64,000 nucleotides of DNA from Squalus acanthias (taxonomy: Eukaryota). Made by a program: the position numbers and the translations under genes. Numbering within the stretch: the first letter of the stretch is position 1; every line of letters starts with the position of its first letter. Under the pieces are notes generated by a model, which was given only the letters and a program-made list of their open reading frames with translations, was not told the DNA's origin and searched no databases. Positions 12,122 to 40,936 of the stretch are shown piece by piece. The stretch spans positions 46,192,001 through 46,256,000 of the forward strand of contig CM059432.1 in the NCBI GenBank assembly GCA_030390025.1, written 5' to 3'.

Positions 12122-13153
12122 TGTAGCACCAGCTTTCTGGCTATTTTTATGAATCACATTTTATATCCAAAACCCCAAGAAAGAACTGTACTGTTGGGCA
12201 AGTTTGTGGGAGTGGCTCAGGGATAGGATTGCAAGCCAGGCTAACCTGACTAAGGTGTATTCATATGCAAATGAACATCTCACACTGACAGGCTGGGTGG
12301 AAGGGAACCCAGGCCGATTGACGTCATCACCATCTAACATGATTACTGGGAACAATACCCCAAGAGGTAACTCAGAGACACTATGCCCTCACATCAATAA
12401 AGCTCAGTCCCAACCGAAACTGGTGGAAGGCAGGAGATGGCCAGGCCATTGTCTTCCAGGAGATAAGCCAGTTAAGCAAGTTCGGTTTGAGATTGAAACC
12501 CATTACCTGCTAATGGGGGCCATCAACTCAGGAAACGACAGACATCCAGTAATCAGCACTCATTGTCTCTCCAGGTGCCAGGCCTGGGAGCGGAGAAATG
12601 GAATATCATTTTTCACAAAGATTTCAAAGGTCATGAGTCACTCCAGGCCACAGGAGGGTCCAGTCAGATCACCTGAGTCAATACATCGATCAGTATTGGC
12701 GGGATAAAAAGGTTTTGGGTATATAGGAGCCGTTCGGGGGCTGCTCTCTCTCTCTCTTCTCCTCGGCGTCAATCTGCAGCGAGTCTCCCGAGTGGGGCTT
12801 GGCTCGACGGAACACCGCCAGAAGCTGAGCGCTGCTCTTCAACCCTCATCAACGGACCTCGACTCAAACTGGAACTAACCAAACCTTAGAGGGTTTAGTG
12901 CTGGGGTCCTGTGTTAGTTTATTTCACGGGAGGGTTCTTTTACTAGTCCGTGGTAATTTAGCACTGGTATGGCTTGTTGGACAGGCCAGGGTTGTATTGT
13001 TTTGTACTGTTACGAGTGTCATTGTTAATCCGATTAAACACAATATGGTTGAGCTCAAACGGGTGTCCGAGTCTGATCTGTCCATATAATCCCTATCATC
13101 CAGAACTTGTAGTAAGAGGTGTGTTTTCAGTGCGCCCGAGAAAACCCCTTACA
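12122..13153 (+). repeat. E1 5' LTR
   Basis: TGTAGCA...CCCCTTACA; direct repeat of 21369-23110 with a few percent mismatch; lacks the 148 bp found at 22126-22273; ATTAAA at 13033. Confidence 0.95.
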
Positions 13154-13158
13154 GAGAT

Positions 13159-13176
13159 TGGTGATAGCTGGCAGGA
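13159..13176 (+). promoter_or_regulatory. E1 primer-binding site (tRNA-Ser-like, imperfect)
   Basis: TGGTGATAGCTGGCAGGA, 5 nt after the LTR; resembles the complement of a vertebrate tRNA-Ser 3' end (TGGCGTAGTCGGCAGGA, recalled from memory). Confidence 0.55.
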
Positions 13177-13227
13177 CGATAGGTTTTGTGTCAGATCATA
13201 GACAGTTTTAAGGGCAAGAGGCCCGGA

Positions 13228-14869
13228 ATGGAGGATAGGATTTCCTCCTAGGTGTTCAATAAGATTAACGTGTCTCAGTCATGGGTGCTGGAGATGCTGC
13301 GCTCTGAGTGTCCCCGGGATAGGGCTGCAGAGTGGACAGGTAGTAGGGATCACAGGAAGTCAAAGGAGAAAGCGATTTGGCTCCTGTGTCTGCAGAAGCA
13401 AGTTCAACTGCTCAGGGAGCAGGTTGAAAAGCTAGGGAACGAACTTAAAGAGTCTGAGGATAAGTCAGACGCGAGAGAGATAGTCGGGAGTAGACTATTA
13501 GAGGAACTGCACGAGGAAAGGCAGGAAAGACGTGCGCAAGAAGAGACCTGCCGGTAACACGGTTGAATACCTACAGTGTCAGGTTACAGAGGCCAAGGTA
13601 AACCAACAGGCCCTACGGGAAGAAAATGCGAGGCTAATAGCGACAGCTGACAGCTTGGAGGGCCAGCTAAGGGATATAAAGATAGCTTATAAAGTAGCCA
13701 GGGGTAGAGGCTATGAGGAAGCAAATCACGGACAATGTAAGGAAAGGATTCAAAAATTGACCCAAGCCTTGTCCGGAGCCAGAGGTATGGCCTGTTTAAT
13801 GTCACCTGGGGGAAACCAGGGTAGACTGGGACAAGGAGGGTCAGGAGCCTGATAATGGGGCTCAGGACAGGGAAGTCCGACCGGCGCCTGAAGCGCCACC
13901 GAGACCAATGTGGCCTCTGCGGCAGCAGAAGTTCAGTCCACCCGCACCAAACGGTGACCAGGGCCCACTGCAGAGCGATTACGTGGTCACGTACACAACC
14001 CCTCAGCTGCAAGCCATGCTATCAGGGACGCCCAAGCTCAAACGGGACGGGGACCCCTCAGTTCACTTTATGGAAGTAGAACAGGTAGGGGGGGTCAACG
14101 GATGTAGTGAGGGCGAGATCAACAGGCTGATGCTGTTTTCCCTTGACGGGGGATTGTATCAGAGCTTATCTGCAGCCACAAAGCTGGGAGGGGGCACCAC
14201 AGAGGGGTTGAAAGACGAGATCCTGAGGGCCATGGGGCATACCCAGAGTAGCCCGTTCTTACAAGTAGAACGGACCAGGCAGCTGGCCGGTGAGGCACCA
14301 GATGCATTCGCGGACAGGCTATGGCCTGTGTACGTAAAGGCAACTGGAGGGACGCTTGACCGCGCGCAGTTGATAGGGGCCCCCAGGAATCACTGGCTCA
14401 GGGTCCTTGTGGCGAACAGCTTGCCAAGGATCAGGGTCAGGGCAGAAGCGTGGTTTGACCCTGAGGACCTCGTGAATACGGAGGCAGGCATGCTCAGAAA
14501 GCTGAGTCTAGCCTTTAAGGCCGATTCTGGGGAGGTCAAATCAAAGGGAAGGGTCCACGAAATGAAAGCCAGTGAGGGTAATAGGAAGGAATGGCGACAG
14601 GAAAGGGTTAGTACCGACAAGTCCAGGACTTGTTTCGGGTGTGGGAGACGGGACACTGGAGGCGAGACTGCCCGTTCCCCAAAGGGGGGAGACCAGTCCC
14701 AGGGATCCTCCAGTGCAAACCACGTGTTACAGAGGCAGAGGGGACGACCGACGAGTCGTTCGAGCTTCTGGTGGCCGCCCTACTGAAGACTATGGGGAAG
14801 GACAAAGGCAAGTTAGACGCTGCCGTGAGCAGTGAAGCGCCTACCGCACCTGTACGCCCCCCACCCTGA
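13228..14869 (+). pseudogene. gag: E1 gag (coiled-coil N-terminus, capsid-like region, CCHC knuckle); stops and frameshifts
   Basis: ORF pieces 13252, 13532, 13908, 14630 align with E2 gag; CFGCG-x-TGHWRRDC knuckle split by a 1-nt deletion near 14647. Confidence 0.88.
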
Positions 14870-17800
14870 CTAGAACGCGCCCAGCCTGAGTACCTGTGCC
14901 TGCTCACGTACGATGAGTGGAGCAGGCCCTGTGTAAAGATGGGGGTGGAGACGGTGCAGGGGAAATATTTGGTGTGCACCGGGGCTTCCAGCACAGTGGT
15001 CCATTCAAAAAACCCGACCAATTCACCCTGGTCTAGCAGGGTCCCATTCAGGCTCGTGGGGTTCACAGCGAATGAGCAGGCTGGGGCAATCTCAAAACCC
15101 CTGGCCATAGAACTAGGATCCCTCCATATCACGTGGGAGTGTGTCCTGATGCAATGGGAACAGCCAGGATCAGGAGTCCTCGGGGCTGACTTTATGTTAG
15201 CCAGCCGAGTGATTGTGGATTTAAGGAATCACTGCCTATGGGGTGCAGCGGATTCAGATAAAGCCGAGGAGGTGCTAGTGATCCCAAGAGATAGGGAAGC
15301 AAGGGGTAGTGTGTGTACTATGAAGCCCAAGGGGAATTACGACCTAGAGCAGTTGGTCTGTAATACCCCAGCCAAGTATCAGGCGAACGTGCGGGACAAC
15401 CTCGCCGCATTCGCCACTCACAAGCACGACTGTGGCAGGGTGACAGGGGTAGAAGTCAGGGTGCAAGGGGACCCCATGTCACGGCCACAGAAACAGTACA
15501 GTTTCCCCAGAGAGGCAGAAGCCGACTTAGAGACGGCACTGGGATCCCTCGTAGAACAAGGGGTGTTGAGGCCGATAGCCACCCACGTAAACTCACCACT
15601 TTGGCCGGTTAGGAAGCCCGACCAGTCGTGGAGAGCCACCGTGGACTATCGAGTGCTCAATAAAAATATCCCAGCCTGCGCATCCACAGTCGCGGCTGTT
15701 GCTGACCTCATAGGGAGCATTCCAGTGACCACAACCACGTTCACGGTGCTGGATATCTCCAATGGGTTCTGGTCGGTTCCCCTCAAACGGAAAGACCAGT
15801 ACAAATTTGCCTTTACATTTAAAGGGCAACAGTACACCTGGACATGCCTTCCCCAGGGGTTTCACAACAGCCCCTCCATATTTCACCAGTGTATGGCCGA
15901 CGCACTCAAAGGCTTCAGCCGACCCAACCAGCTAATCCAGTATGTGGACGACTTGCTTTTGTTCTCCGCGGTGGCGGAGGAGTACAGGCCACTGCTGGAC
16001 GAGCTGTTGAGGCTGTTGCGGGAGACAGGGTTTAAAGTGAATCCAAAGAAAGCCCAGATCGGTCGGGAGGAAGTCAAATTCCTCGGGCTGACTGTGAGGG
16101 CTAGTGAGCGAGCGATAGATGAGGCAAAAAGAAAGGCAGTACAGGAGTTACCAGCTCCCAAGGATATAACAGGGTTAAGATCCTTCCTGGAACTCACAGG
16201 GTACTGCCGGGAATTCAGAGAGGGTTACGCAGCCACGGCAGCCCCTCTGCTTCGGCTCTCCGCAAGGGAGTCGGGTGGGAGTGGGACCAGAACTGCCAGG
16301 AAGCGTTCACCCGCCTCAAGGAGAATTTACAGACGGCACCCGTGTTGGGAGCCATTAACAGTAGTGAGGAATTCCTTTTGGAGGTAGCAGCCAGCGGGGA
16401 TAGCTTGAGCGCGGTGTTGCTCCAGGAGCGGCACGGCAAGCTACAACCCGCGGTCTACTCCTCAAGGGTTCTCACTGAGGTAGAAAGGGGATACTCCAAC
16501 TGCGAGAGGCATCTCCTAGCGACGCACTGGACCGTAAAGCTCTCCCAGCTCTTTACGGAATCATCCCTGATAACTTTACGAACTCACCACACCCCCACTC
16601 AGATGTTGTTAGACGGGAGGATAAAGGACGGAACAGTGAGCAGTGCCTGTATTGCTCGCTGGACTTTATTGCTCTCGCAAATGAATCTGAGAGTGCAGGG
16701 GTTGACAGAGCCAAAGCTGGCTATGAATTTAATCTACCCAGGGACTGCCCATGCGTGTACTGTAGAAGGGGTGTGGGACGTAGGTGTGGGATTCCGGGCC
16801 GGGATACACCCGACAGGCCGGGACATCTACGTAGATGGGTCCAGTTCGGTGGTGAACGGGGAGCATCTCAGCGGGTGTGGGATTTATGACCCCACAGCTA
16901 AGGTAGTGAAGGCCATTAAACTCCCCAGCACCCTGAGCGCTCAGCGCGCCGAACTGTCGGCGGTGGCGTACGTGGTTGCCCACCCCGACAAATTCCCCAC
17001 CCCCTATACCATCTGCTCGGATTCCATGTTCACCTGTAATTCATGCACGGAGTACTTGGCCATTTGGGCCAGGCGCGATTTCAAGTCCACAGATGGGAAG
17101 CCCCTAGCGACAGCACCGTTGCTAGGGAGAATTTTAAAAGTCGCGGGCACCCGGGGAGATTACTACATACACAAGGTTAAAGCCCATTCAAAGACAGAGC
17201 CCAAGTGGGAGGGCAACCAAAAGGCAGACGAGCTGGCCAAACAGGGGGCCAGGGAAGGAGTATTCTGGGATCCGTACAGAGCAGGTCTGGTAGCAGCAAT
17301 CTGGGACAAGGGAGGCACACGGGGTTAGCTTTGGCCCCGGACTTAACACAAGTCCAAGCACAGGATCCTGTACTTAAGGCCGTCCTTGTAAAAAGGGAGA
17401 ACGGCGCACCGGCAGAGGGTCCGTTCGGGGCAGTGGACATCACGGTTAAGGAAGGGATGCTTTTCAAAGGGGATCGTTGGATAGTTCCAGCACAGCACCG
17501 GGAGGAGTTCCTCCAGTTAGCCCAAGGGGGCCCGGGGGCAGGACACCCAGGCTGGAAACTACCTGGCAAAGGGTAGAGGAGGCGGGGTGGTGGCCCCATC
17601 TCAGGGAGGAAGTCAAAGAATTCTGTGCGAATTGTTTGGTGTGTGCGGCTAACAACCCCGATCCCCAGCGCAGAAAAGCCCCCATTGGACACACCAGAAG
17701 GGTAGAGGGACCATGGCGGTCCCTGCAGGTCGATTTCATCGGACCACTACCCACCACTAAAGCAGGTAGCAAGTACTGCTTAGTCCTGGTGGACGTATTC

Positions 17801-18748
17801 TCGAAGTGGTTGGAGGCCTTCCCATGCCGAGCAGCCACGGCACTAGTGACAGCTAGGATCCTGGTGAGGGAAGTATTCTCCCGATGGGGACTGCCACAGG
17901 TCGTGGAGTCCGACCAAGAGAGCCATTTCACGGGGCAGGTGATGCAGGCCACCTTAAAACTTTTGGGAATACAAGGGAAGTGGCATGTGGCTCACAACCC
18001 CCAGTCATCGAGGATTGCGGAGCGCATGAACCGGACACTGAAAAAAAGACTAAGGAAGGAGATAAGCCCGTTCCCGCAGAGATGGGACGAGGTCTTGCCT
18101 CTAGTCTTAATGGGTGTCCAGGCCAGCCCCTCCAGAAGCACAGGGTACTCTCCACATGAGCTCATAACCGGGAGGATTATGCGCACCCCAACCCACGTGT
18201 TGGCGCCGGTCCTCACCGAAGCTCAGGTCAGGGAGGTAAACCGGGACAGATTTGTCCACAATCTGTTTGACACTTTAAAACAGATTCACTGGCAGGCAGC
18301 CAGTAACCTGGGGAGCCAGCACTGAAAAAATCAGTTGTTGCTAGAGCCCCAGAGAACCCACGAGTGGAAGGTGGGAGACCAGGTAATGGTCAGGAACTAT
18401 GCCCACGTAGGGGTGTTCGAGCCACTATACATGGGGCCTCATAACATCGTAGATAAGGCGAGGCCCATGGTATATGTGGTGAGACTCCCGAAACGCATGA
18501 AATGGTATCACATCAACCAGTGCAAGTTGTTTAACCCCGAGGAGGGGAAAACAAAGGCAAGGAGAAACCAGGGCAGGATAATGAGCCTGGTGGATGCGGG
18601 TCTTCCTCCCATGGTGCGGGACGATGATGATGACCCGGAGGACGGGGCGGTAAGGAGAAGCAGTCGGGTCCCACGGCCTAGGGTGCCGTGGACGCCTCCT
18701 TACTCGCCGACCGCGAGCCACAAGAGGCCCCGGCTCGAGAGGTTTTAA
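14870..18748 (+). pseudogene. pol: E1 pol: protease, RT, RNase H tether, RNase HI, integrase; disrupted
   Basis: LVCTGAS (protease DTG mutated), LDISNGF, LPQG, YVDD, tether EVAAS...YSNCERHLLA, RNase H YVDGS/AELSA/SDS/GNQKADELA, integrase QVDFIGPL, ESDQ, ERMNRT, GPH. Confidence 0.93.
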
Positions 18749-18892
18749 CCGAGGGCACGCGATAACACGGAACGAACTATAAATATATGTAAATAACGAA
18801 AGCCAGACCTGTGGAGGAAAAACCTCTCACAGAGCGGTGTTGCTTTGTCTGTTTGTCTTAATATAGAAATCAGAAGAAACCGGAGAAGTAAA

Positions 18893-21125
18893 ATGGAGAC
18901 AACCCTAAGACTGAGCATGCTCATAATTCTGGTGGGAACGGGACACATGGAGAGAGGAGACACCGAGGTGTCCTTCCTCTACGGCTGCACAGGAGGAAAC
19001 GGACCCACCGTGACACGGGGGGGCAGGACAGGGGACACGGACGGGATGGCTGCTTACTTCCACGAGGGAAGGTGGCCGGGGTGGTTGGGGTTGAATTTGA
19101 CTAGATACTCCAACAACACCGGTTTCACATTTGGGGCAGCATCCATACCGTGTCCCAAGCTGCAGATCACAGCCACACGGGTTAGGGCGACCGAGGGGAA
19201 GCGCGTTTGTTTAAAATGTGAGGGACACATTCCCTTGGGACGGTGGTGGTGGTTGAGAAAGTTGGACCAGGCCAAGGGTAACAGATCCGCGGACTGGGAG
19301 AGACTGGGGGTCGACACGTACCGACAGATTACGGGGACGAATGGGGGAGTGGAAGTGTGCTGGAACAAGTGGTGGAAGGAGGAGCTGGGCATTTACGTGT
19401 GTGTGGGGGTCAGAACGGATCTGCCCGACGGATGTGTCGATTGCCTTTTCGCGGCAATGGCAGGACTCCGGGGCCGGGATCGGATGGGATCGGAGTTTGG
19501 ACTCCTGCGTGATCCCAGACCCTCCCAACACAGTAAATGCCACAGAACTCGTTGCACAAGAGAGGAAGCCCCTGCCCACAGCCCCACAGGCACAGGGAAC
19601 AGAAATTAGGTGTCCTGCCACCACACCGGGACCGAGAAACGGGTTAGTGTTGGTCCCAACGGGAAAGATCTTGTATCATGATGTACACTATGAGGTAGCA
19701 TCGGTCATTTTGAATTTAACCCGAGTGCAGCTGCCCCGGTGGTGTCCGGCAGAAACAGAGAGGCTTTACGAGACCTTGTTGAAAGTGATGCTCCGCCAGT
19801 TTTACGAGCTAAGTTATGAGGATGAGAGTCGGGAAGGGTTGTATACATTTAATACGAACAGTCGCGTTGGTTCGGGGAGACAGAGGAGAGGGGTGTTCAA
19901 CGATGCTGCCACAGTGTTCAGCACAGGAAAGTCTCTGATAAACAGTTTGGACGATGCACAGCTGCAGATGCAGGTCAACACTCTAGGGATCAGCTGCGAA
20001 AGATACTGCGGGAGGGTAACGAGCTAGAGGGGTCGGAGTTACGGGAGGACCAGGCTATGACCATACATTTAAAGGAGGTCATAGCCGAGCTGGAGGCGCA
20101 CGCTCAGACGATCAATAGTTTGATCAGGGAGGATCGGGATGCGTCGGCACAGGCAGCTAGAAATGATGCGTGTGTGCTGCACGGTGCGTGGCTGCTGAAC
20201 GAAGGGAGCAGTCATTTGGAGGACCTGCAGCAAGGTCGCGTCCCTTCCTGGGTTAGCAACCGGCATCTCACCGCGCTGAGCCCGTATGATAATCTGATGA
20301 GCCCGTGTCAACTCCAGCTGGCCTCAGAGGCCTACCCGGTTCTAGTTGATGGGGATCGTACTCCGAATGCTGGTAATGGGCAGGTCACAGCGGCCAGCAC
20401 TGGTATACTGGGTAGAAAACATTGGTGTCCTGAGGAACGGGGTGCACATGCGGCATAATGGGGCCCCACCGTTCGTAATAAAGTGGGAACACGCCATGAC
20501 CGGCACTGACCTCAAGGGGTGCCAGAGCAGGGGTGCGCACATGGTGTTGTGTCCCCAGCACCTGAACGCGTTCGATCGACCAGTGTGTGGGTTTGAATCG
20601 GAAAGTGCAGATCCCATCAAATGCACCATGGAGGTAATGGCCCAGGGCCACGTTCCACATCAGATAGCATCCGCGAGCAACGGGACGTACTGCGTCACGA
20701 CGAGTGTGGACCAGTATTGGGTACACCACGACACTTGGTGCCCTGTCGCTGACAAAACTTTCTGCTTCAAACCCCACACAGAGGTTCAGGTGGCGCAAGG
20801 GCGCATCATCCCCATTTCAGATTTCACCACGGTACACCTCACGGTGAGCGACACGATACAGGACCTGCAGCAATACGTAACACGGTTCAGGTATGAAATT
20901 CCTCCTCTGCCTGAACACCTCACAAAACTAATAAAGGAAGTTGAACTGTCTCAACAACACTTCTACACCCTCGAACAACGGAACAGGGAAGTGGGGGAAG
21001 AAATAGAAGAAATGGCTTCCCCGCCCTGGTGGGACTTTGATTTGAATGTCGAGATCCCTCCATGGATCCGAATAGTTTCACACACAATAGTGGTAGTACA
21101 ACTAATCATGGTGTTGTATCTGTAA
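18893..21125 (+). pseudogene. env: E1 env: signal peptide, Ig-like domain, F-like class I fusogen, TM; frameshifted
   Basis: METTLRLSMLIILVGTG signal; RQRR/GVFND cleavage site at 19878-19889; heptad region; Cys-rich region; PPWWD followed by hydrophobic TM. Confidence 0.85.
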
Positions 21126-22429
21126 AAGTTATCCTGTAAAAAGAGAAGGAAAGCACTCTGAAATCATTCGGAGGCCCTAATAAAAGGGTAACCAGGAGTT
21201 GTACTGCCTGTAAATATGGCGAATTGAATTGTTATAAGAAACGGGACCCCAGGTTTCATTGATAAGTAATGTACAGTTTGGTCGAGACCCACAATGTGCC
21301 TCCCGCAGCAGAAGACGACGAAATCCGTGATATTTCTGCTTTTGGTGACGAAATATCGAAGGGGGGAATGCAGCATCAGCTTTCTGGCCATTTTTATGAA
21401 TCATATTTTATATCCAAAACCCCAAGAAAGAACTGTACTGTTGGGTAAGCTTGTGGGAGTGGCTCAGGGAATAGGATTGCAAGCCAGGCTACCCTGACTA
21501 AGGTGCATTCATATGCAAATGAACATCTCACACTGACAGGCTGGGTGGAAGGGAACGCAGGCCGATTGACATCATCACCATCTAACATGATTACTGGGAA
21601 CAATACCCCTAGAGGTAACTCAGAGACACTATGCCCTCACATCAATAAAGCACAGTCCCAACTGAAACTGGTGGAAGGCAGGAGATGGCCAGGCCATTGT
21701 CTTCCAGGAGATAAGCCAGTTAAGCAAGTTTGGTTTGAGATTGAAACCCATTACCTGCTAATGGGGGCCATCAACTCAGGAAATGACAGACATCCAGTAA
21801 TCAGCACTCATTGTCTCTCCAGGTGCCAGGCCTGGGAGCAGGGAAATGGAATAACATTTTTCACAAAGATTTCAAAGGTCATGAGTCACTCCAGGGCCAC
21901 AGGAGGGTCCAGTCAGATCACCTGAGTCAATACATCGATCAGTATTGATGGGAGAAAAAGGTTTTGGGTACATAGGAGCCATTCGGGGGCTGCGCTCTCT
22001 CTCTCTTCTCCTCGGCGTCAATCTACAGCGAGTCTCCTGAGTGGGGCTCGGCTCAATGGAACACTGCCAGAAGCTGAGCGCTGCTCTTCATCCCTCATCA
22101 ACGGACCTCAACTCAAACTGGAACTTGGATATCACGTCGGCGGTAAGGAACCAGGAGCGAGATGTACAGGAAGAAGCTGCAAGCAAGACAACGGGCAATC
22201 GGGGTGAGCATATTGCCTGCGCCTACACATCCACAAGACCACTTAGCTGTGTGAGGGGGTGATTGTAAGTCCCAACCAAACCTTAGAGGGGTTTAGTGCT
22301 GTGGTCCTGTGTTAGTTTATTTCACGGGAGGGTTCTTTTACTAGACCGTGGTAATTTAGCACGGTATGGCTTGTTGGACAAGCCAGGGTTGTATTGTTTT
22401 GTACTGTTACGAGTGTCATTGTTAATCCT

Positions 22430-22977
22430 GATGTGGAGATGCCGGCGTTGGACTGGGGTGGACAAAAATGAGAAGTCGCACAACACCAGGTTATAGTCCA
22501 ACAGATTTATTTAATTTTACAAGCTTTCGGAGCTGTCGCTCCTTCGTCAGGTAAGTTAGCAATGAGAGAATCTCCCAGAATTCACAATTTAAACCCAGAC
22601 AAAATCTATTCACATTATTCGCTACAACAAAGAGCACAGCCAAGACAATGAGATGTGTCCCAGGGGGTCCAACGTGTCAAACCACCTGCTGGCTGCATAT
22701 CCTGTCAATTTGTGTTCTTGTGTTAGCCTTTTTAAAAAAAAAACAAAAAAAAAAAAACACCTGGGAAGACCGGCCATGATGTCAAGTCACGTTCTGTATC
22801 GTGACATGAACCCGATATCGCGATTGAGGCCATCCTCATGAGTGCGGAACTTGGCTATCAGTTTCTGCTCTATGATTTTGCGCTGTCGTGTATCTCGAAG
22901 GCCGCCTTGGAGAACGCTTACCCGCAGATCCGAGGCTGAATGCCCCTGGCTGCTGAAGTGTTGTGCGACTTCTCATT
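22430..22977 (-). mobile_element. Penelope-like element 3' fragment (GIY-YIG endonuclease C-terminus, pLTR, inverted tail)
   Basis: 12-bp TSD ATTGTTAATCCT (22418-22429 / 22978-22989); 22787..22960(-) translates HFSSQGHSASDLRVSVLQGG...EQKLIAKFRTHEDGLNRDIGF; terminal inverted copy of TGAGAAGTCGCACAACAC. Confidence 0.85.
22517..22552 (-). ncRNA. Minimal hammerhead ribozyme
   Basis: Minus strand CUGACGA-A-GGAGC-GACA-GCUCC-GAAAGCUU: both catalytic boxes, a 5-bp stem II and a palindromic short stem III. Confidence 0.75.
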
Positions 22978-23955
22978 ATTGTTAATCCTATTAAACACAA
23001 TATGGTTGAGCTCAAACGGGTGTCCGAGTCTGATCTGTCCATATAATCCCTATCGTCCAGAACTTGTAGTAAGAGGTGTGTTTTCGGTGCGCCCGAGAAA
23101 ACCACTTACACAACCGAAAACCTTATGAATGTCCTTAATAGCAACCTCACACTGCTGATTTAACAATTGATCATCTATTATCCCCAGGTCTCTTTCATGG
23201 TTCATCACCATTAACAGCTACTCCTGCACGGTATAAACATGCCAGGCCTTTCTTTACCCCAAGTGCATGACATTGCACTTCTCAATGTCAAATGATATCT
23301 GCCACAACTGTCCCATTCACGAATTTTTCTAAATCGGCCTATAATTTACTGATTTGACGTAAAGTAATTTTCACTATTCATATTTTTTTATGATCTGAAA
23401 ATTTAAGAATGGTTTTACTGAAGCCCTGCTTTGAATCATTAATGCAAATGATAACCAGCAATGGTCCTGATAAAGAGGCTTGTGCAACTCCATTCATAAC
23501 CAAGCCCCAGTCAGAACCATTCCTATTCATGACAGCCCTTTGATTATTATAACTGCCTAAAATCCTATGTGATCTAATTTTTGCTAATAGCTATCCATGC
23601 AGTACTTAATTAAACTTTGAAAGTTAAGGTATACAACATCAACCAAACTATTTTCAGCCACCATTCTGATCGATTCTAAAAGACCTCAATCAAATTAGTG
23701 AGGAAGAACATTTCCTAAAGCTATGTTGGGTATCCCTAATATCTGCTGAACCTGTCAAGTGATCATATATCACCTCCTTATGATTCTACCCAATAGTTTC
23801 CTTATGGCTATGATCACTTCTGTTTCTAATTTACGTAAATGACCTAGATTCAGAAACTTAATGCAAAGTGGTCAAATTTGCAGATAATATTAAATGAGGA
23901 GGAGTAGTGAAATTGGAAGAGGCAACTCAGGAACTACAGAATGAGTTGGACAAGA

Positions 23956-24562: not shown

Positions 24563-25213
24563 GGCAATAGTTTATTGAGTTGTTACCACCATCAACCACC
24601 CAACTGTCCAGGTGGGACAGCAGCCATTATGAGTTATATTATCCCCTGTCCCAACCAATTTATAGACACTTGCTACATTCTGAGATAGTCTTTGAGCTCG
24701 TAACCAGTTCGAATGAAAGATATTCTCAGAAATCCTCCCAATGACTCGCAACAATCCAAAAACTTACAACCTTGCTTCTTTGTCCTTAAATATTCATGAT
24801 GCGGAGACTGGGGTGGACAAAAGTGAGAAGTCGCACAACACCAGGTTATAGTCCAAGGGGTAGAAATTAGGTCGCGCCCCATTTGGGGCGCAAATATCGT
24901 CCGAGCGCAAATATTAGCGCCTGGTGCTAATTATCGGCACTGACAGGAAACTTCACTTTTACCGCCCCGGGAGGTGAGTGGAGCGCTAAATTAGGCGCTG
25001 CACACCTCTCTTAAGGCGCAAAGGCCTAGGAGTGAGGCGCTACCTCAGCGCACGAGCGCAGCGCAGCTGCTGCCAGTTAGCGAGGGAACACAGACACACT
25101 GGCGCCGGACACTTCTTAAAGCGGGGGGGGCCACTTGCTCCCCAGCCACACCCTGCTCATTGCAGCCTTGAATCTCAGCCTGGAGAGACCTGTAATCCAT
25201 TTTGCTGCCAAGC

Positions 25214-27089
25214 ATGGAGAGGGTGAGAGAACGCGCTCATCGCTTCACCGAGCGGGCCTTGGATGCTCTGGTTGGCGCAGTGGAGCGCAGACGATGCATG
25301 CTGTTCCCGGAGAGTGGCAGGAGGCCTTTGCCACGCGAGTTCAGAAGAGTGTGGAGGGAGGTGGCTCAGAGCGTCTCCTCCAGGAGCATGGTGCCCAGGA
25401 CCCATGTTCAGTGCCGCAAAAAATTCAACGACCTCACTCGGGTCGTCAGGGTGAGTGGCTTTTTCTCAATACCTCTCCATCCCTCCATCTCAACCTCACT
25501 ATATGGCCAGAGGGTCTTAAAACCCCAATGCACAACACTCATGCAACACCTATGGCCCTTTCATCAAACACACACACACATTCCACACTTTGCATACAGT
25601 AAGGGCTATTCACCTATGGGAGGCACATCAGGCAAGACCATGGCTGCATATTGTAAGGGCTATTCACCTATGGGAGGCACATCAGGCAAGACCATGGCTG
25701 CATATTGTAAGGGCTATTCACCTATGGGAGGCACATCAGGCAAGACCATGGCTGTATATTTACTCAGATGCTGTCCTTTTTCTTGCAGGCTAAGCTGGCT
25801 CATAATCGGAGACAGCAGCAACGGACGGGTGGAGGGCGGCTTCAGCTGCAACCCCTCAGCGATCTGGAGGAGCGCGTCCACAGGATTGTGGCAAGCCGGG
25901 TGATCGGTCCCGTCGCCACTGGGGACGCCGACCCCGTTGTGGACAGCAATGGTAAGGTCATCACCTTTTTGTCCTCTGTCCTTCCACTTGTCCCTCACAA
26001 TACCAGCCTTTGACACTTTCAATCCAACTTGCTAACTCGCTGCACTTATTCCTCCCTTACTGCCACCCTGTCCTCACGCTAAAGCCACTCTTGTACCTCC
26101 CTGCTTTCAGATGGTGATTCACCAGCTGAGGAGATGGTCCCTGAAGCTGCCACTGGGAGTGATGCTGCAGCTGAGGAGGAAGAGGAAGCCGGAGCATCAG
26201 TGCCACCCTCTCCCGAGGAAGCCCATGGCCACACTGGGAACACGCCTTCCCCGGAGGGGAGCAGGGGGGAAGGGGCTGATGATGGTGAAGCTCCAGGACC
26301 CAGCGGGCTGCAGCAACGCCATGGGGGGGGAGGGAAGAACGGGAGCCTTCTCCCCAGAGGGAGAGTATGCCAGACACTCCTACTGCAATGGACGCAGAGG
26401 AGGAGCGGCTGATTGCAGAAATGAACAGCCAGGCGGTGGGCATGCACACTGAGCTCATGGGTGCAGTGGGAAGGGTGCCCGAATGCATTGAGGCACTGGC
26501 AAGGAGTGTGGAGCACTTCGCTGTAGCACAGGCGGATGCCACACTAAAGCTTAGTGCTGCAATTCAGTCACTGGCTGCCAGGAACCCATCTGAGACTGCT
26601 CTCATGCAGACTCAGATTGAGGCCACGTGAGCACTGACTGCTGCCATCCTCGATGGTTCGTGCACATGTCCCCAGGGCTGTCACCGCGCCGCAGCAGGCC
26701 AGCAATCTGTTCTCCGGCAAATTGCTCCGGATGCTGAAGTGCTGCCCCGTGGGAGTGCCAGTGTGTCGGGCGAGCAGGGAGTTGCTGTCCTCTCTCACGA
26801 TGACAGCATTCCTGCTGCCAACACTGTCACTTCTCCCCTGCACTTGCCACCGCCTGTAGGACAGACTGCTGCCGCCCATGCGGAGTTGGTGCAGTCTGCA
26901 GCCGGGCCCTCCAGGCCCAGAAGTGGTCGAGGCCGTCCTTCAGGGGCATCTGCAGTGTCAGGGTCTGACGAGCAGCAGCCTTCCACCAGCCTTGCTGCAG
27001 CCACTGAGGTCCCATTACGGAGGAGCAGTAGGGTTAGAAGGGGGGAAGTGCGCAAGGGAAGGAGATCACCCTCGAAGGGCAAAAAGTAG
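25214..27089 (+). pseudogene. Harbinger Myb/SANT-like DNA-binding gene; exons 25214-25450, 25789-25951, 26111-27089; frameshift and stop in exon 3
   Basis: RFTERALDAL...WREVAQSVS...RTHVQCRKKFNDL; GT-AG introns with matching phases (0 and 1); frame break near 26325-26365 and TGA at 26628. Confidence 0.8.
25599..25760. repeat. Tandem repeat, 54 bp x3, in Myb-gene intron 1
   Basis: Units start at 25599, 25653 and 25707 (GTAAGGGCTATTCACCTATGGGAGG...). Confidence 0.95.
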
Positions 27090-27383: not shown

Positions 27384-28544
27384 CTAGAAGCGGCTTGCTA
27401 TTAGTCGTTGACGGACGGCCCTTGCAGTTTGACCATTGTGGGCCGCCCTCCTGCCTTGGTGCTGCTGCTGATCATCGTCCTCGTCCTGTTCCTCCTCTTC
27501 CTCCTCCTCCTCTTGTGGTGCTGCAAGGCCTGGTGGCATTGGCTGCGTCCTGAGGATTGCCATGTTGTGCAACATGCAGCACACGACTACGAAGTTCGAA
27601 ACTTGCTCAGGCGAGTACTGCAGGGCTCCTCCGGAATGGTCCAGACAGCGGAATCGTTGTTTCAGCACGCCGATTGTGCGCTCAATAATGTTCCTGGTTG
27701 CTTGATGGCTTTCCTGGTACCGCAGCTCAGCAGGGGTGTTTGGCGCACGGAGCGGTGTCATCAGCCAGGTGCTCAATGCGTACCCCTTGTCCCCCAGAAG
27801 CCAACCAACTGGCTGATGCGGTGCCTCGAAAATTTCTGCCACAGTACTCTGGCGCAGGATGAAAGCATCGTGGCAGCTGCCCGGATAGTGGGCATTGACA
27901 GCGAGAATCACCTGTCTGTGGTCACAGACCAACTGCACATTCAAGGAATGGAACCCCTTTCTGTTCCGGAACTCCTCTGCATTCTCTCGCGGAGCACGCA
28001 AAGCCACATGCGTGCAGTCAATGGCGCCCTGCACCATGGGGAAGCCCGCTACCCTCGCAAAGCCCATAGCACGGTCATGCTGCTTGTCTGGGGTCATAGG
28101 GAAGGAGATGAAGTCTCGTCTCCTTCTGAAGAGGGCATTGGTGACCTGCCGGATGCAGCGATGCACCGCAAACTGGGAGATATTGGCGAGGTCCCCAACA
28201 GCAGCTTGGAATGAGCCAGTGGCGTAGAAGTTCAAAGCCACTGTGACCTTCACTGCCACCGACAGAGACGTCCTGGACCTCAGCTGAGGCTGCAGATCTG
28301 GCTGCAGCAGGTGGCAGAGCTCAGTGACCACCTCCTTGCTGAATCGCAGCCTTCGCAAACACAGCTCCTCGGACATATGGATGTAGGAGAGCTGTTCACG
28401 ATATACCCTGGGAGGGTAAGCTCTCCTGTACATGCGCCTGATGGCCCTCCTCCGTCTGGCCATCATTGCCACTCTCTGTCTGCGTCTCACTATCCTCCGA
28501 TTGAGCTGGAGCAGGACGACGCCCCCAATCATTGCAGCCCCCAT
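27384..28544 (-). CDS. Harbinger DDE transposase (HARBI1-like), intact 386 aa ORF
   Basis: [58 protein letters not shown]. Confidence 0.93.
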   Translation of the reverse strand: MGAAMIGGVVLLQLNRRIVRRRQRVAMMARRRRAIRRMYRRAYPPRVYREQLSYIHMSEELCLRRLRFSKEVVTELCHLLQPDLQPQLRSRTSLSVAVKVTVALNFYATGSFQAAVGDLANISQFAVHRCIRQVTNALFRRRRDFISFPMTPDKQHDRAMGFARVAGFPMVQGAIDCTHVALRAPRENAEEFRNRKGFHSLNVQLVCDHRQVILAVNAHYPGSCHDAFILRQSTVAEIFEAPHQPVGWLLGDKGYALSTWLMTPLRAPNTPAELRYQESHQATRNIIERTIGVLKQRFRCLDHSGGALQYSPEQVSNFVVVCCMLHNMAILRTQPMPPGLAAPQEEEEEEEEQDEDDDQQQHQGRRAAHNGQTARAVRQRLIASRF

Positions 28545-29469
28545 ATTCTCTTTGCCAGAAAAGTAATGAGGTGTAGCAACTAAAGTAGCAGCAAAGTTAG
28601 GATGAACTAGGCCAAACTACCTCACAAAGCGTTGAGTCAATGTAGAAGTCTCTCTCTCTCTCTCTCTCCGAATCTCTCTCTCTCTCTCAGAACGAGTGGT
28701 GCATAAATGTCGACCACAGAAAAAGACAGGAAGAGGCCCCCTTTAAATAGCGCCCCCCCCAGCCCCACACCGATTGATAACGTTCCAGTCTTCCGGTCGT
28801 TGGAAGCGCCAGGCGGTAAGGCAGGGGGCGCCACTCAATTTCCACTCCGGGGCGCCCCAAGGGCGTTGCACCATGGAATGACGTCACAATCTGCGCGCGC
28901 AGGTGGTCGCAGTGGTAAGTTTTAGCGCCGCCGCACAATCTCAAGTTAAGTTCTCGAGCGGCGCAAACAGCGCTGTGCCCGGGCGTTAGCGGCTTAACGC
29001 CCCATTAGCGCCCTCTTAAGGCGCTAACGGGAGGTGCAACCAACTGAATTTTTCCCCCCAACAGTTTTATTTGAAAGCTTGTGATTTCAAATAAAACTGT
29101 TGGACTATAACCTGGTGTTGTGCGACTTCTCATTAAATATTCAGGCAATTTTTGAGTATTTATCTTTAAGAATTCCAACCCATTATATAACTCTTACCAA
29201 CATGCAAAGCAATTACAGTTGTCTTACTTTCTCCCTTCATCAAACCATCTAGCATAAATTTGTGCCCATAATCGGAGTCCTTGGAAAACTCAGTCGCCTT
29301 ATTACTTACCTTTAGATTTACTTTAATCTGTTTGGAGGTTGCTGTAACTCTGTCCATCCTCCCCTTTTGGGGTTTGCGAGTAGGTTTCCAGTAGCAGAGG
29401 TAAAGATATCAGATGAACTAGTGAGAAAAAGGGAATTGTTCTCAGAAACCTGTGAATAGTTATTTTTTT

Positions 29470-33607: not shown

Positions 33608-34542
33608 TGAAAGGATTCGCAAAATTTCATGTGTCCTCCCCGAAGATTTTTGTTGGACTTTTTAATAAGGAACCCTGGTCTGACTGAGTTTTAAAATCCA
33701 GGGCATAAAATGGCTGCGGTCAGACCTCGTGACCAAGAGCCTTTCAGACGCTGGCAAACTATCAGCTTGTGTATTCCGATGCAATGGGGACAAACCCAAT
33801 CAGGTCTACGCATAAGGCTTTCAAGGTGTTTGCTCAAATAATCAGCGGGGACATTGAGACTGGGCTGGCCCATCATCGAACCAGTCGGACAAAGGGGAGC
33901 AGTTGAAGAACTGGTATGATACAATTAACCTTTTGTTAAAATTCATCATGCCCAGATCAGACAATAGAAATGAGCTGATCTGAAGGGGGATTAGGACGAC
34001 CGCGAGGGTATAACTGGGAAGACCCAGCCCCTCTCTCTCTCTCTCTCTCTCTCTGCCTGGATCCCGGTTCACCCTGCCTGTCTGCCAGCAGCCAAGAAAG
34101 AAGACCAGAAACTTCATAGCCACGTTTCGACGGCAGAAACAGGGTACAAGGCCAGGCTTTTCCATCCATTTCACCGGTGAGCATTATCTTCTTCTGGCTG
34201 TCGCAAGACAATTTTAGTTAGGCATAAGGGTGGGAATTAATGGGGATATTGCTAAAATTGTAATTTTAGGATTTTCCCTCGATGTGTCCGTTCTCCTCCC
34301 ATGTTAAGTGTAAAACCGTCTTCATATGATACTGTTTCTCTGTAGTTTTACTTCTGTAAATAAACATTGGTTTTCCTCGCACCAATCCACGGGTCTGTTT
34401 GTTTGTCCTTATCGCCGCTCGATAAGTCCTGGGCTCAGAACTAGGAAGGGGATAGCAATTCGCAACCACACAATGGGCAGGACAGCTCAGGAAAACATAA
34501 CTGGCTGACCTACAAATAAGCCCGAGACAAAAACCCCTTACA
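33608..34542 (+). repeat. E2 5' LTR
   Basis: TGAAAGG...CCCCTTACA; TATAA near 34009, (CT)n tract, AATAAA 34359-34364; near-identical to 43641-44568. Confidence 0.95.
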
Positions 34543-34546
34543 GAAA

Positions 34547-34563
34547 TGGCGAACCAGGTAGGA
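34547..34563 (+). promoter_or_regulatory. E2 primer-binding site (imperfect, tRNA-Ser-like ends)
   Basis: TGGCGAACCAGGTAGGA, 4 nt after the LTR. Confidence 0.5.
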
Positions 34564-34617
34564 ACCCAGGTGAAAGCGTGTGATAAGGCAGACCGTGTTG
34601 CGGAGGAGGAATCCGCA

Positions 34618-36455
34618 ATGGAGCAAAGATTATCTATCTATGTGTGCGGCAAAGTTAATATCGCAAAAAAATGGGTGTGCGATATGTTAAAAGCCGAGCG
34701 CCCCCTAGATGCAGCTGCCCAGTGGACAGCAAGTAAAGAGTACAGGAGAGGTATTGAAAAAGCGGTCTGGCTCATGTGTTTGAAAAAGCAGGTTTTAGTG
34801 TTAGACCGTGCTGTTGCAACACGGGCAGCCAAGATCAAACAGTTGACCCGAGAGCTGCAGGAAAAGACTGCAGCGGAGGAGAAAGTAGTAGTGGCCCTCC
34901 AGGCAGTAAGCCAAGAGAGGGCACAGACGGCACGGGACCATCAGGCTGAGTTAGAGTGTATGAGGGCCCGGGCCGTTGAAGCTCAAAGGGAACACCAGGC
35001 AAAGTCAGAGCGCCTGGAAGACCGGATCGCTGAGCTCAAAAGTAGCGCTAGGCACAGGATGGAACACCTGGAATACCAGGTCAGAGAGGCGAGAGGTAGT
35101 GAGGTTAGGTTAATGGACAAGATTTCCAGCCTCACGCAAGAGTTGAAAGAGCAGGAGGAGAAAGTAGGCGAAGTAAAAGCAGCATATAAGCTGGCTTGTG
35201 CCCAGGGGTTTGAAGACACAGACCACGGCCCCTGCAGGCAAGAAATAGAAAGCTTGGGTATGGCCTTAGTAAGGGCGAAGGGCATGGTATGCCTCATTAG
35301 CCCAAAGATGGGCCAGTTGGATTTTACCAGCAACCCAAGCAGGGAAGTCCCACAGGCAGCTCCCAGAAAGGCACTGGTTAGGGAATCAGAGGTTTCGCGA
35401 CCGCCACCCATAGCCTCGAGTTTTCAGGAGGCCTGGCAGCAAGGTGGGGTGGAGGATGGAGCATTAGGGGAGATCCAGCAGGCCCTAGGGGATAAACCTG
35501 GTCCGGGACCAGTGTACCCCTTCCGACAACGGAGGTACAGCCCGCCAGCCGATGGCGAGGACCTAGGGGCCATCCAGAACCAGTTTGTAGTGCCGCATGG
35601 TACCCAACAGCTCAGAGCCATGGTTGGACACATCCCTAAGCTCACAGTGAGGGGGGACCCCTCTCTACATTTCCGGGAGATAGAGCAGGCAGCATCCGTT
35701 AATGACTGCAATGAGGCAGAACAAGCAAAAATGCTGCTGTTCTCTCTGGGTAGTGATCTCCTCCAAACCCTATCGGATGAGTGTAAGAAGGGACAGAAAG
35801 ATTACGAGGAGTTAAGGGATGAGATATTGAAGGCCATGGGACTAAATGATGGGAGTCCGTTCGCCCGAGTGGAAAAAATGGTATAGCTCCCCGGGGAGTC
35901 CCCGCAGGCATTCGCAGACAGGCTGTGGCCAGTCTACCAGAGCGCATGCCCGGAACGCCAGTGCGGACGTTCCTCAACAGAGACCAATTGGCCCACTGGC
36001 TCCGTTGTCTCATGACAAACTGCCTGCCCCAAATCCGAGCCCAGGCTGCGGCCTGGTTTGACCCCCGAAACCCCCAGACCACCGAAGAAACGGTGATCCG
36101 CCAGCTCACGGTAGCATTTAGAAATAACGGGAGGGGAATTGAGATGCCCCAGCCCAAAGGGAAAGTCCACGAGGTTAAACCTGGGGGCCAGAATAAGAAA
36201 GAGTGGCACCAGGAGGGAAACCGTCCCTCCTAGAATAAGTTAAACTGCTATGGCTGCGGGAAGGACGGCCACTGGCGCAAAGATTGCAAAAACCCCTGGA
36301 AGGACACCAAGGGAAAGAGCTCCACATCTCCAGGCCCAAAGGTAGACACTGGGACCCCCACAGTAGAGAGCGTTCTAGAATCACTGCGGGTTCTCCTGGT
36401 CAGTCAGGGGAAGATAGCAGTTCCCTCAGCCCCCTCTGACGATGCCCCGCAATGA
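34618..36455 (+). pseudogene. gag: E2 gag (long coiled coil, capsid-like region, CCHC knuckle)
   Basis: MEQRLSIY aligns with E1 MEDRISS; frameshift near 35930, stops at 35884 and 36231; CYGCGKDGHWRKDC at about 36246-36287. Confidence 0.88.
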
Positions 36456-39400
36456 CTGGAGGCCGCGCAGCCTGTCTACCTGTGTGCTCTCCGGTATGAT
36501 GGATGGAAGAGACCGCTCGTGCAGATGGAGGTAGAGAAGGTTAAAGGGACTTATCTGCTGGATACGGGGGCATCATGCACTGTAATCCACGCAGCTAATC
36601 CCACCACCTCACCTCTGTCTAGCGGGGTTCCATACGTTCTATCGGGGTTCACCGGCAAGGAACAGGCGGGAGCATTCTCCAAACCGCTCTCAGTCCGCCT
36701 GGGTCCACTCCAGACCAAGTGGACATGTGACCTGGCGAGGTGGGAAGCGGAGGGAGGAAAGGGGATCCTAGGGGCCGACTTCATCGTGGGCCACGGGATC
36801 CTCGTGGATCTCCAAAATCATTGCCTTTGGGGGGCTGATACGGGTAAGGAGAACGGTGTGGTAGTAATCCCAGGAAAGGAGGGGAAGGGAATCCTGTGTA
36901 CTGTGAAGCCGAAAGAAGGTTACGACCTCGGGCTCATGGTGGAGGGTGTCCCGGAGGAATTTAAAGCATTCGTGCAGGCTCACCTAGCTGCGTTCACCAC
37001 GCACAAACATGACTGCGGGAGGGTCACTGGGTTCGAGGTCAGGGTAGACGGAGACCCCATGCCCGGCTCCAGAAGCAGTATAACTTCCCCAGGGAAGCAG
37101 AGCCTGATATGGAGATAGCCATATCCTCGCTGGTACAGCAGGGAGTGTTGAGGCCCATAGCCACTCATGTTAATTCTCCGATTTGGCCGGTCAGGAAACC
37201 GGACAATTCATGAAGAGCCATGGTGGACTATCGGGTGCTCAACAGCAATATCCCCGCGTGTGCCCCCACGGTGGCAGCAGTTGCCGACCTTATTGGAAGC
37301 ATTCCAGCATCCGCGACTACGTTCATGGTGCTGGATATTTCGAATCGGTTTTGGTCGATCACCTTAAGGAGGGAAGACCAGTATAAGTTTGCCTTTACTT
37401 TTAAAGGGCAACAGTATACTTGGAACAGCTTGCCGCAAGGCTTTCATAACAGCCCCAGCATCTTCCACCAGTGCATGGCGAATAGTTTAAAGTAATTTAG
37501 TCAGCCCACCAAGTTGGTGCAGTATGGGGAGCATGGCCCGCTACTGGCCGAATTGCTGGAGCTGCTGCAGAGTATAGGGTTTAAGGTCAACCCGAAGAAG
37601 GCGCAGATCGGCCAGCGGGAAGTTAAATTCCTGGGTCTGACCGTCCGCGCAGGGGAGAGAGCCATAGATAAGGCAAGGAGGGAAGCGGTCCAAGAGCTAC
37701 CGGTCCCCAGTACTGTGAGGGGTGTGAGGTCGTTCTTAGGGCTAACGGGGTACTGCAGAGACTTTATCGAGGATTATGCAGCCACGGCAGCCCCTCTGCT
37801 CCGACTCCTACATAAGGGAGTGGAGTGGTCTTGGGATGGGGGGTGCCAGGCAGCATTTGTCCAGCTAAAGAGGGACCTGCAGACCGCACCAGCCTTGGGA
37901 GCGATAGATGGAGGGAGGGAGTTCTTTCTGGAGGTAGCGGCCAGCGGGGACAGCCTCAGTGCCGTGTTGCTCCAGGAGCGTCACGGCAGGCTGAGGTCCG
38001 TGGTCTACTCCTCCAGAGTACTCACTGACGTGGAGAGGAGCTACTCAATTTGTGAGTGGCACCTCTTGGCCACGTACTGGGCTGTGAAAAGATCATCGAT
38101 CTTCACAGGCACCTCTCCCATCACCCTCCTCACACACCACACGCCCACCCAGATGCTTCTGGACGGGAGGATTAAAGATGGGACAGTCAGCAGTGCACAC
38201 ATTGCGTGCTGGACCCTCCTCCTTTCCCAGATGGATCTGAGGGTGAGGGGCCTTTGCGAGCCCAAGCTCGCAGCCAATATGGTATATCCTGGAACAGCCC
38301 ATCGGTGTTCGATAGAAGGGGTATGGGAGGTGAACATTGGTCTGCGGACCGGGATACATCCCACAGGCTGCGAGATCTATGTAGACGGTTCCAGCATGGT
38401 ATCCGCTGGCGAACGTCTCACTGGGTGTGGAGTTTATGACCCAACAGCAAACATTGCCTTGGCGATCAAGCTCCCCAGTACCATGAGCGCCCAGCAGGCG
38501 GAGCTGTCCGCGGTGGTGTACGTGGTTACCCACCCCGAAATCTTCCCCACCCCATACACGATTTGCTCGGACAGTATGTTCACCTGCAACTCGTGCACGG
38601 AATACCTGGCAATCTGGTCCCGTCGCGGATATACCTCCGCTGACGGGAGGCCCTTAACAGTAAAAACCCTGCTGGAGAAAATCCAGGCAGCCGTGGGGGA
38701 GGAAGGCGAGGTCTTCATCCACAAGGTGAAGGCTCACTCCTCCACAGAACCCCGCGGCCAGGGTAACCAGCAAGCTGACGCGCTGGCCAAGGAGGGTGCC
38801 CGCGCTGGCATTTTCTGGGACCCCTATGGGTCCGGGTCCGTGGCGGCAGTTAGAGGCAGGATGGGACACAGAGGAGCTTAGGGGTAGCGTTGGCCCTGGA
38901 TCTTAAAACGGTCCAAGCCCAGGACCCTGTCCTGAAAACCGTCACAAGCGCAGTGAGCAAGGGTAGGAGGATAGAAGGCCTTTACAGCGCAGCAGCCCTC
39001 TCCATAAGGGAAGGCATGCTGTTTAAAGAAGGACAGTGGGTAGTGCCCCAGCAGCACCGGAGGGAGTTCCTTCAACTGGCCCATGAGGGTCCGGGAGCGG
39101 GACACCCCGGGCCTGAGGCCACCTGGCAACGGGTGGAACAGGCGGGATGGTGGCCGGGACTCCGGGAAGATGTCTGCGAGTTCTGTGCTAGCTGTCTTGT
39201 GTGCGCTGCAAACAACCCCGACCCCCACAGAAGGAAGGTGCCCATGGGACACGTCAGGAGGGTGGAGGGACCATGGCAGTCGATCCAGATCGACTACATC
39301 GGGCCCCTGCCCACCGCCCAGGGAGGCTACAAATACTGCCTCGTCCTGGTGGACGTGTTCTCCAAGTGGGTAGAAGCCTTCCCCTGTAGAACAGCCACAG

Positions 39401-40681: not shown

Positions 40682-40936
40682 GCTAGCCGCTCGGAGACGG
40701 GTGGCGAATGTACAGAACTTGGTCTGAGAAGTTTGTAGTTTTAAGTTAGATTGTTGAGTTTGATTTTAAGGTGCGGAACCGTATAGCAGTTTTAAGATGG
40801 AACCGTTCCAGTGTATGTGTGTTTGTCCATGTGAGCTGAGGTCGAGGGACACGCTCACACTTCACCCCAGCCAAGGAGCCTATAGGGAGCCTGGCTAGAT
40901 GTTCTTCATTTTTTTTTTCAGGCAATTAAAAGGGAA

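Follow-up and report, generated by a model that had tools for sequence, protein, structure and literature searches.

The 64,000-nucleotide stretch of Squalus acanthias DNA analyzed here (the window; GenBank assembly GCA_030390025.1, contig CM059432.1, forward-strand positions 46,192,001 to 46,256,000) carries two endogenous retroviruses (ERVs), E1 and E2, whose gag and pol genes meet in one reading frame at a TGA stop codon (Table 1). Both have the architecture of Retroviridae: long terminal repeat (LTR)-gag-pol-env-LTR, with a primer-binding site (PBS), a polypurine tract (PPT) and a target-site duplication (TSD). According to Pfam, pol encodes a protease (PR), a reverse transcriptase (RT), a degenerate RNase H, a second RNase H and an integrase (IN); the dual RNase H and the order PR-RT-tether-RNase H-IN are likewise those of retroviruses. 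Likeness between the two copies is about 69% in pol (3.7 kb) and 64% in env (2.1 kb), and blastn found no match between their LTRs and none between their gag regions. Judged by these comparisons, E1 and E2 are separate insertions of two subfamilies, so the features common to both predate either insertion. Both copies are broken and cannot make Gag-Pol now.

The TGA occupies the positions given in the original prediction, 14867–14869 in E1 (CCC TGA CTAG) and 36453–36455 in E2 (CAA TGA CTGG), and lies 36 codons ahead of the protease active-site position in both. Gag ends with a zinc knuckle, a variable tail and then PTAP or PSAP, starting 9–10 codons before the stop. Because gag is broken in both copies, the open stretch of the pol frame upstream of the stop is limited to 85 codons in E1 and 73 in E2. 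In an ungapped comparison, E1 and E2 are identical at 2–13 of 30 nt in five bins before the stop and at 16–23 of 30 in ten bins from the stop on. Codon differences after the stop fall mostly at third positions (13/22, versus 4 and 7 at the others), suggesting that selection acted on the Pol protein at a time when the stop was already present. The premature stops in the aligned parts of pol, one in E1 and three in E2, are unshared and fall at different positions of the protein P0002, which argues against decay as the origin of a stop that both copies carry at one homologous codon.

CT follows TGA at 8 of the 212 TGA triplets of E1 and E2, CTAG at two and CTGG at one (junctions included); in judging the rarity of this context, the two copies amount to a single evolutionary observation. 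UGA followed by a conserved CUA (CUD in alphaviruses) is the arrangement of type II readthrough sites (UGA-CUA/CGG), and the junction matches it. A −1 frameshift was rejected, since gag and pol share one frame and no slippery heptamer occurs in the 200 nt upstream of the stop. The peptides originally quoted after the two stops were confirmed, and the accompanying statement that no Met follows the stop holds for those 20 residues; beyond them, an in-frame ATG stands at codon +24 in both copies (14939 in E1) and is the only nearby in-frame AUG. Codons 17–48 of E2 align without gaps to residues 6–37 of HIV-1 protease, WKRPLV being identical. Residues 1–12 of HIV-1 protease contain the dimer strand and Arg8. 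In this register a start at +24 would lose the equivalent of residues 1–12; the AUG is thus too late for a whole protease, and ribosomes would have to be in the frame by codon +12 at the latest. A single-sequence structure prediction of the E2 protease (pLDDT 30) was unusable.

Other copies and relatives of the junction

We compared positions 14560–15160 with four of 24 listed runs (nine organism labels), representing four organisms and four studies. The stop is covered in all four, at a depth of 1650–2670 (bin 14854–14874) and with at least one listed bridging contig in each. Among the best 40 of 214 substitution rows none changes positions 14861–14873, and among the best 12 of 22 indel rows none touches 14857–14873. 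The neighbouring positions 14860 and 14874 do vary among the same 40 substitution rows. The lesions of E1 itself are also visible: 57–100% of the depth differs from E1 at the frameshift in its zinc knuckle, and 85–100% at its protease active-site codon (14975, codon +36), which is altered in the E1 copy only. As these lesions and the two neighbouring positions appear in the rows, a majority sense codon at the stop would be expected there too, and UGA is apparently the majority state in the four other organisms. In run X19, the residue of codon +2 is changed in 83% of the depth, yet the G of CUAG is retained, which hints weakly that CUAG is constrained at the nucleotide level. By eye, the PTAP motif is also present in X14 and X19, in loose-end rows of these two runs.

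An RT tree of 51 rows unites E1 and E2 with P0001 in one clade (100/100), and the retrovirus group that includes them is split from 16 gypsy-like rows (100/100). E1 and E2 fall outside the 14-row gamma/epsilon-like clade (100/99) and hence outside class I. The branch joining them to snakehead retrovirus (SnRV) has support of 81/53 in this tree, which was built from rows other than foamy, ERV-L and loki and whose deeper order is poorly supported. Among 12 viral loci, the RT is closest to L001 (43% over 247 aa, versus 34–36% for L002–L011). We take L001 to be SnRV, its junction being the UAGGGC given for that virus (PMC13517186; here and below, papers are cited from the accessible parts of their text). 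On this evidence and on the RT motifs that follow, E1 and E2 are ERVs of SnRV-like grade, and are neither gamma/epsilon-type nor lokiretroviruses. Loki RT rows read CPFGY.NSP..F.IF, and E1 has LPQGFHNSP.IFHQ, like the SnRV row (by eye, PMC7947760 supplement). ERV4 is described as having no zinc knuckle and a 5-bp TSD (PMC4299795); E1 and E2 have a zinc knuckle and a 4-bp TSD. Spumaretrovirinae express Pol from its own AUG, in another frame and from a spliced mRNA; in E1 and E2 pol is in the gag frame and has no usable AUG.

The closest named relative is a protein of the shark Heptranchias perlo (P0070, 83%). A SnRV-like lineage has been described in the elephant shark, gag and stop codons being unmentioned in the accessible parts of that paper (PMC4422223). 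From 201 database proteins, 20 match the E2 protease, 15 of these have an RT at least 38% identical to that of E1 (five were dropped as more distant), and in 13 of the 15 a protease motif could be located. In 11 of these 13 the protein starts no more than 31 residues before the protease Asp, as expected with an upstream stop and equally with a Pol that has its own Met.

Searching viral contigs with E1 Pol gave no relatives among six candidates. In a metagenome scan 80 of 518 loci were kept; all scored below the retroviral loci in RT, with 30% as the best identity. A degenerate junction pattern matched 43 loci in viral contigs, 0/43 with protease similarity; its two matches in the window are no evidence, because the pattern was built from E1 and E2. 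In the junction comparison of the viral loci, L010 and L012 have no row and that of L009 is shifted. L011, a retroviral contig of 10,207 nt, carries TAG-GAC in frame, 41 codons ahead of its protease Asp; the accessible parts of PMC13517186 do not mention this context.

Routes to Pol expression

Given the observed stop, its frame, its context, its conservation and the lack of a usable AUG, we infer that readthrough of the UGA is the best and a likely explanation of Pol expression; the anatomy, the other copies and the homologous UAG junction of SnRV lend good support to the conserved UGA-C readthrough originally predicted between gag and pol. Ribosomes would translate the full-length RNA of the ancestral virus from the gag start, and most of them would halt at the UGA, yielding a Gag that ends in nucleocapsid (NC) and a short variable tail with P(T/S)AP. 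A few percent would insert a near-cognate amino acid at the UGA and continue in frame, producing Gag-PR-RT-RNase H-IN. The near-cognate residues at UGA are Trp, Arg or Cys. The protease would then cut itself out about 9–12 residues past the stop, and in E1 its N-terminal cleavage site probably lies in the 11-codon spacer. The leak would be set mainly by the CU(A/G)G directly 3′ of the UGA (Beier-Grimm type II), no conserved nearby structure having been found. That UGA-CUAG is leaky, as had been claimed, agrees with published data: alphaviruses use UGACUA/UGACUD as their signal (UGACUG in the case of Trocara virus), and in human genes readthrough at UGACUAG is at least about 1.3% (PMC13517186). 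For Sindbis virus (SINV), context alone gave 0.4% in vitro and 2.0% in cells (PMC3159437).

Several points weigh against this explanation. A SINV-like rate is perhaps too little without an enhancer, and none was found here. The wider relatives differ at the junction: 2/13, P0004 (coelacanth) and P0076 (frog), continue from Gag-like sequence, a continuity that is either true or the product of a predicted intron, and several, P0009 and P0010 among them, begin with a Met of their own 28–31 residues before the Asp. The junction may not be a stop throughout the wider group. Minority copies with a sense codon could sit among the remaining 174 substitution rows, and the comparison with other copies tests the E1 subfamily only. 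CU and G may also be kept for the residues they encode (Leu, Glu/Ala).

A variant compatible with readthrough at the type II context, in which a 3′ RNA structure is needed (an 8-bp stem or a longer-range element), appears unlikely to us, though it has the most in its favour among the alternatives. Type II sites are often aided by structure, and alphaviruses often have a stem 8–9 nt downstream (PMC3159437). The original prediction had placed such a stem in E1, and its arms (14898–14905/14920–14927) are indeed a perfect 8-bp reverse complement, with pair probabilities of 0.58–1.0 for the hairpin. For the 81 nt after the E1 stop, the fold surpasses that of 98.8% of 500 synonymous shuffles, but with windows of 60 and 120 nt it is matched by 20% and 9% of shuffles, so that the advantage is seen at one of three window lengths; against dinucleotide shuffles z is −1.1 (80 nt), −0.6 (120 nt) and −2.0 (46 nt cut around the stem). 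Perfect stems of at least 8 bp occur in 5/98 (E1) and 5/108 (E2) 80-nt windows, making the E1 stem alone a 1-in-20 event. One pair, 14899:14926, joins two third-codon positions and varies compatibly (C-G in E1, U-A in E2, U-A or U-G in other copies). Pairing appears broken at 14901, where 88–100% of the depth in the four runs has a base unable to pair with E1 14924, with no compensating row at 14924 among the best 40 of 214. The stem begins 28 nt after the stop, versus 7–9 nt for known readthrough stimulators (PMC3159437), and in E2 5/8 of its pairs are left and the fold has no advantage over shuffled sequence (z +0.3 and +0.6). E1 and E2 share five helices after the stop, none starting before +45, within the control range of 2–17 in 11 blocks; no conserved helix starts 7–12 nt 3′ of the stop in this comparison of two sequences, which extends to +270 nt and has little power for a distant element. 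Taken together, these comparisons do not support the stem as a conserved readthrough stimulator.

The main true rival to readthrough is a foamy-like spliced pol mRNA, in which the conserved TGAC would be branch-point-like, the conserved CAG at +15 to +17 would be the acceptor and an upstream exon would supply the AUG. The best PDB matches of the RT are 7kse and 7o0h, chains of foamy virus Pol, both copies have CAG|CCT at an identical position in phase 0 of pol, CTGAC in E1 fits the branch consensus, and entry at codon +6 would leave the protease whole. Against this, there is almost no U tract (2 T and 39–56% pyrimidine in the approximately 18 nt before the AG), the branch A would be merely 15 nt from the cut, and the residues encoded by codons +1 to +5, which precede the cut, are conserved (LE.AQ). 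In foamy viruses, moreover, pol has its own AUG in another frame (PMC8278194), and SnRV is listed among the readthrough cases (PMC13517186). Overall, we regard splicing as improbable. Slightly more improbable still is an unspliced, independent start of Pol, by reinitiation or internal initiation at the +24 AUG or at a near-cognate codon: the ATG is present in both copies, P0001 begins near the same place and E2 has CUG directly after the stop, but initiation at +24 removes the protease N-terminus as described above, codon +1 in E1 is CUA rather than CUG, and a free Pol would need another route into particles.

That the stop is an inactivating mutation, the real virus having had a continuous gag-pol frame and the family having spread by help in trans, would suit two copies that are otherwise broken and the continuous Gag-PR of P0004 and P0076 in gene models of distant relatives. 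This idea is already largely refuted and has very little probability left, as the same stop is found in two subfamilies, is apparently the majority state in four other organisms, and precedes a pol whose third-position divergence indicates selection. Decoding of the UGA as selenocysteine is hardly credible: a UGA with a hairpin nearby in E1 could recall such a system, but no Rfam family, SECIS included, reached its gathering score in 12000–45000 or E≤1 in 14700–15200, the codon lies in a spacer and not in an active site, and SnRV has UAG there.

Proviral anatomy and neighbouring elements

The features of both proviruses and of the remaining window are collected in Table 1. E1 is flanked on both sides by the 4-bp TSD CAAC (12118–12121/23111–23114) and E2 by CTGA (33604–33607/44569–44572). 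Four base pairs is the ERV1 value in the table of PMC4299795, so that both proviruses combine an ERV1-type TSD with an RT outside class I. E2 has a gag ATG in frame at 34546, 3 nt past the LTR, which overlaps the first bases of the PBS; E1 is without such a PBS-overlapping ATG, and its gag seems to start at a later Met (13228). The env call rests on position, a furin-like RQRR, a C-terminal hydrophobic stretch (by eye) and Atlas features. The broken pieces of the env-like gene gave no Pfam match, and neither SnRV env nor gamma env was similar to it at E<0.05; its Atlas features are nearest to fusion glycoproteins of negative-strand viruses (Monjiviricetes-fusion clusters 0.93, with low recognition; PF00523, the paramyxo/pneumovirus F family to which loki Env is similar, 0.83). 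A SnRV-like pol stands beside a possibly loki-type or other captured fusogen. The 3′ LTR of E1 contains insertions at 22126–22273, which seems to begin a short repeat, and at 22429–22977. Between E1 and E2, the Myb/SANT-like and DDE_Tnp_4 open reading frames (ORFs) probably belong to a PIF/Harbinger DNA transposon.

Table 1. Features of E1, E2 and other elements in the window.
Element	Feature	Position	Strand	Remarks
E1	Provirus	12122–23110	+	separately inserted; broken by frameshifts and stops
E1	5′ LTR, TG...ACA ends	12122–13153	+	LTR pair 95.5–97% identical
E1	Putative PBS, TGG..., 5 nt past LTR	13159–13176	+	sequence, inference
E1	gag, with stops and frameshifts	13228–14869	+	start placed by eye, on resemblance to E2 gag
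E1	Zinc knuckle (NC), split by copy-specific frameshift	14631–14672	+	other copies differ at the break
E1	PTAP late-domain-like motif	14840–14851	+	begins 9 codons ahead of the stop
E1	gag stop and context TGA-CTAG, type II readthrough motif	14867–14873	+	sequence
E1	pol: PR-RT-tether-RNase H-IN, frameshifted	14870–18535	+	
E1	11-codon spacer, stop to equivalent of HIV-1 protease residue 1	14870–14902	+	HIV-1 register
E1	8-bp hairpin	14898–14927	+	real in E1, not conserved as such
E1	env-like region, spread over several frames	18797–21125	+	
E1	3′ LTR, split by two insertions	21369–23110	+	
E2	Provirus	33608–44568	+	separately inserted; broken by frameshifts and stops
E2	5′ LTR	33608–34542	+	LTR pair 97.2% identical
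E2	PBS	34547–34564	+	14/18 nt identical to PBS of L001 (SnRV)
E2	gag, broken	34546–36455	+	
E2	Zinc knuckle, wholly in pol frame	from 36246	+	Pfam zf-CCHC, E 8.4e-5
E2	PSAP late motif	36423–36434	+	
E2	gag stop and context TGA-CTGG	36453–36459	+	sequence
E2	pol, broken	36456–40100	+	ATG 36525 (codon +24), DTGA 36561 (codon +36)
E2	env-like region, spread over several frames	41046–43241	+	
E2	3′ LTR	43641–44568	+	
Other	RT ORF of probable LINE	709–2124	−	related copies near 24300, 46800, 55500
Other	Myb/SANT-like ORF	25196–25903	+	contains 54-bp tandem repeat
Other	DDE_Tnp_4 transposase ORF	27384–28616	−	

Comparison with known systems

In-frame gag-pol stops are textbook knowledge for gammaretroviruses. 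They are also listed for walleye dermal sarcoma virus (WDSV) and SnRV, readthrough having been verified experimentally in gammaretroviruses and not in epsilonretroviruses (PMC13517186). The novelty that the original prediction implied for UGA was overstated, as UGA is reported for SSSV, ZFERV and RMEV (PMC13517186) and for XtERV-S (PMC8278194), and its contrast with UAG use in gamma- and epsilonretroviruses stands as one with a different group, E1 and E2 not being of gamma/epsilon type in the RT tree. Retroviral UGA gag stops and UGA-C are already known; neither the exact type II UGA-CUAG for a retrovirus nor the present junction for shark ERVs turned up in the literature searched, which was mostly open-access with few subscription papers and Repbase reports. 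The accessible parts of PMC12440569, PMC9040795, PMC5210030, bioRxiv 10.1101/2021.11.23.469661, PMC4977317 and PMC4299795 contain no description of the junction.

Tentatively, this lineage may have set its Gag:Pol ratio by a bare, structure-free UGA-CUAG, a signal so far not known to be demonstrated in any retrovirus. At one homologous junction, the basal grade around SnRV may switch freely among UAG readthrough, UGA-CUAG readthrough, continuous Gag-Pol and a Pol that begins with a Met of its own. The Gag run-on of P0004 and P0076 and the Met 28–30 residues before the Asp in P0009 and P0010 hint at other modes of Pol expression within the grade. The junction offers a short, reporter-scale test of whether a retrovirus can use type II UGA-CUAG without a pseudoknot, and relative to SnRV it presents a UAG/UGA switch at one homologous site. 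It is also a warning for annotation: Pol proteins of the E1/E2 group are annotated from their first Met, and the protease N-terminus is lost. The general picture of retroviral Pol expression is unchanged, and both copies are dead.

SnRV resembles E1 and E2 in its in-frame stop before the protease Asp (32 codons, versus 36 in E1 and E2), with no Met between in SnRV, in its single zinc knuckle and in the PBS that it largely shares with E2. It differs in having UAG-GGC (type III-like) at the equivalent place instead of UGA-CU(A/G)G and no P(T/S)AP in its Gag frame, and no similarity of E1 or E2 gag or env to SnRV was found at E<0.05. XtERV-S, a class III frog ERV, likewise has gag and pol in frame, a TGA proposed to be suppressed, and PSAP; unlike E1 and E2, it is ERV-L-related, with YIDD, a dUTPase, a gamma-type env and no zinc knuckle, and related copies have a 5-bp TSD (PMC8278194). 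SSSV, ZFERV and RMEV, described as distant epsilonretrovirus relatives, share with E1 and E2 a UGA at the gag-pro junction and aquatic hosts; their contexts (UGAAGA, UGACGA and UGAAGU, respectively) include no UGA-CUA, only ZFERV shares UGA-C, and the UGA had not been tested experimentally according to PMC13517186.

Gammaretroviruses such as Moloney murine leukaemia virus (MoMLV) have an in-frame stop after NC and shortly before the protease (27 codons before the Asp in L002–L008), but use UAG-G with a pseudoknot 8 nt downstream and form the separate RT clade. Lokiretroviruses share the dual RNase H and an env without a Pfam retroviral match and with viral-fusion-like features, and the close database relatives of E1 and E2 are named NYNRIN-like; they differ in RT and protease motifs and were found in 0/6 cartilaginous-fish genomes screened (PMC7947760). 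The same stop and context as in E1 and E2 are found in the type II sites of alphaviruses (UGA-CUA) and vertebrates (UGA-CUAG). Alphavirus genomes are unrelated and often carry a stem 8–9 nt downstream that was not found in E1 and E2 (PMC3159437), yet in alphaviruses, as would be the case in the ancestor of the two shark proviruses, the stop gates the polymerase just ahead of a cleavage site.

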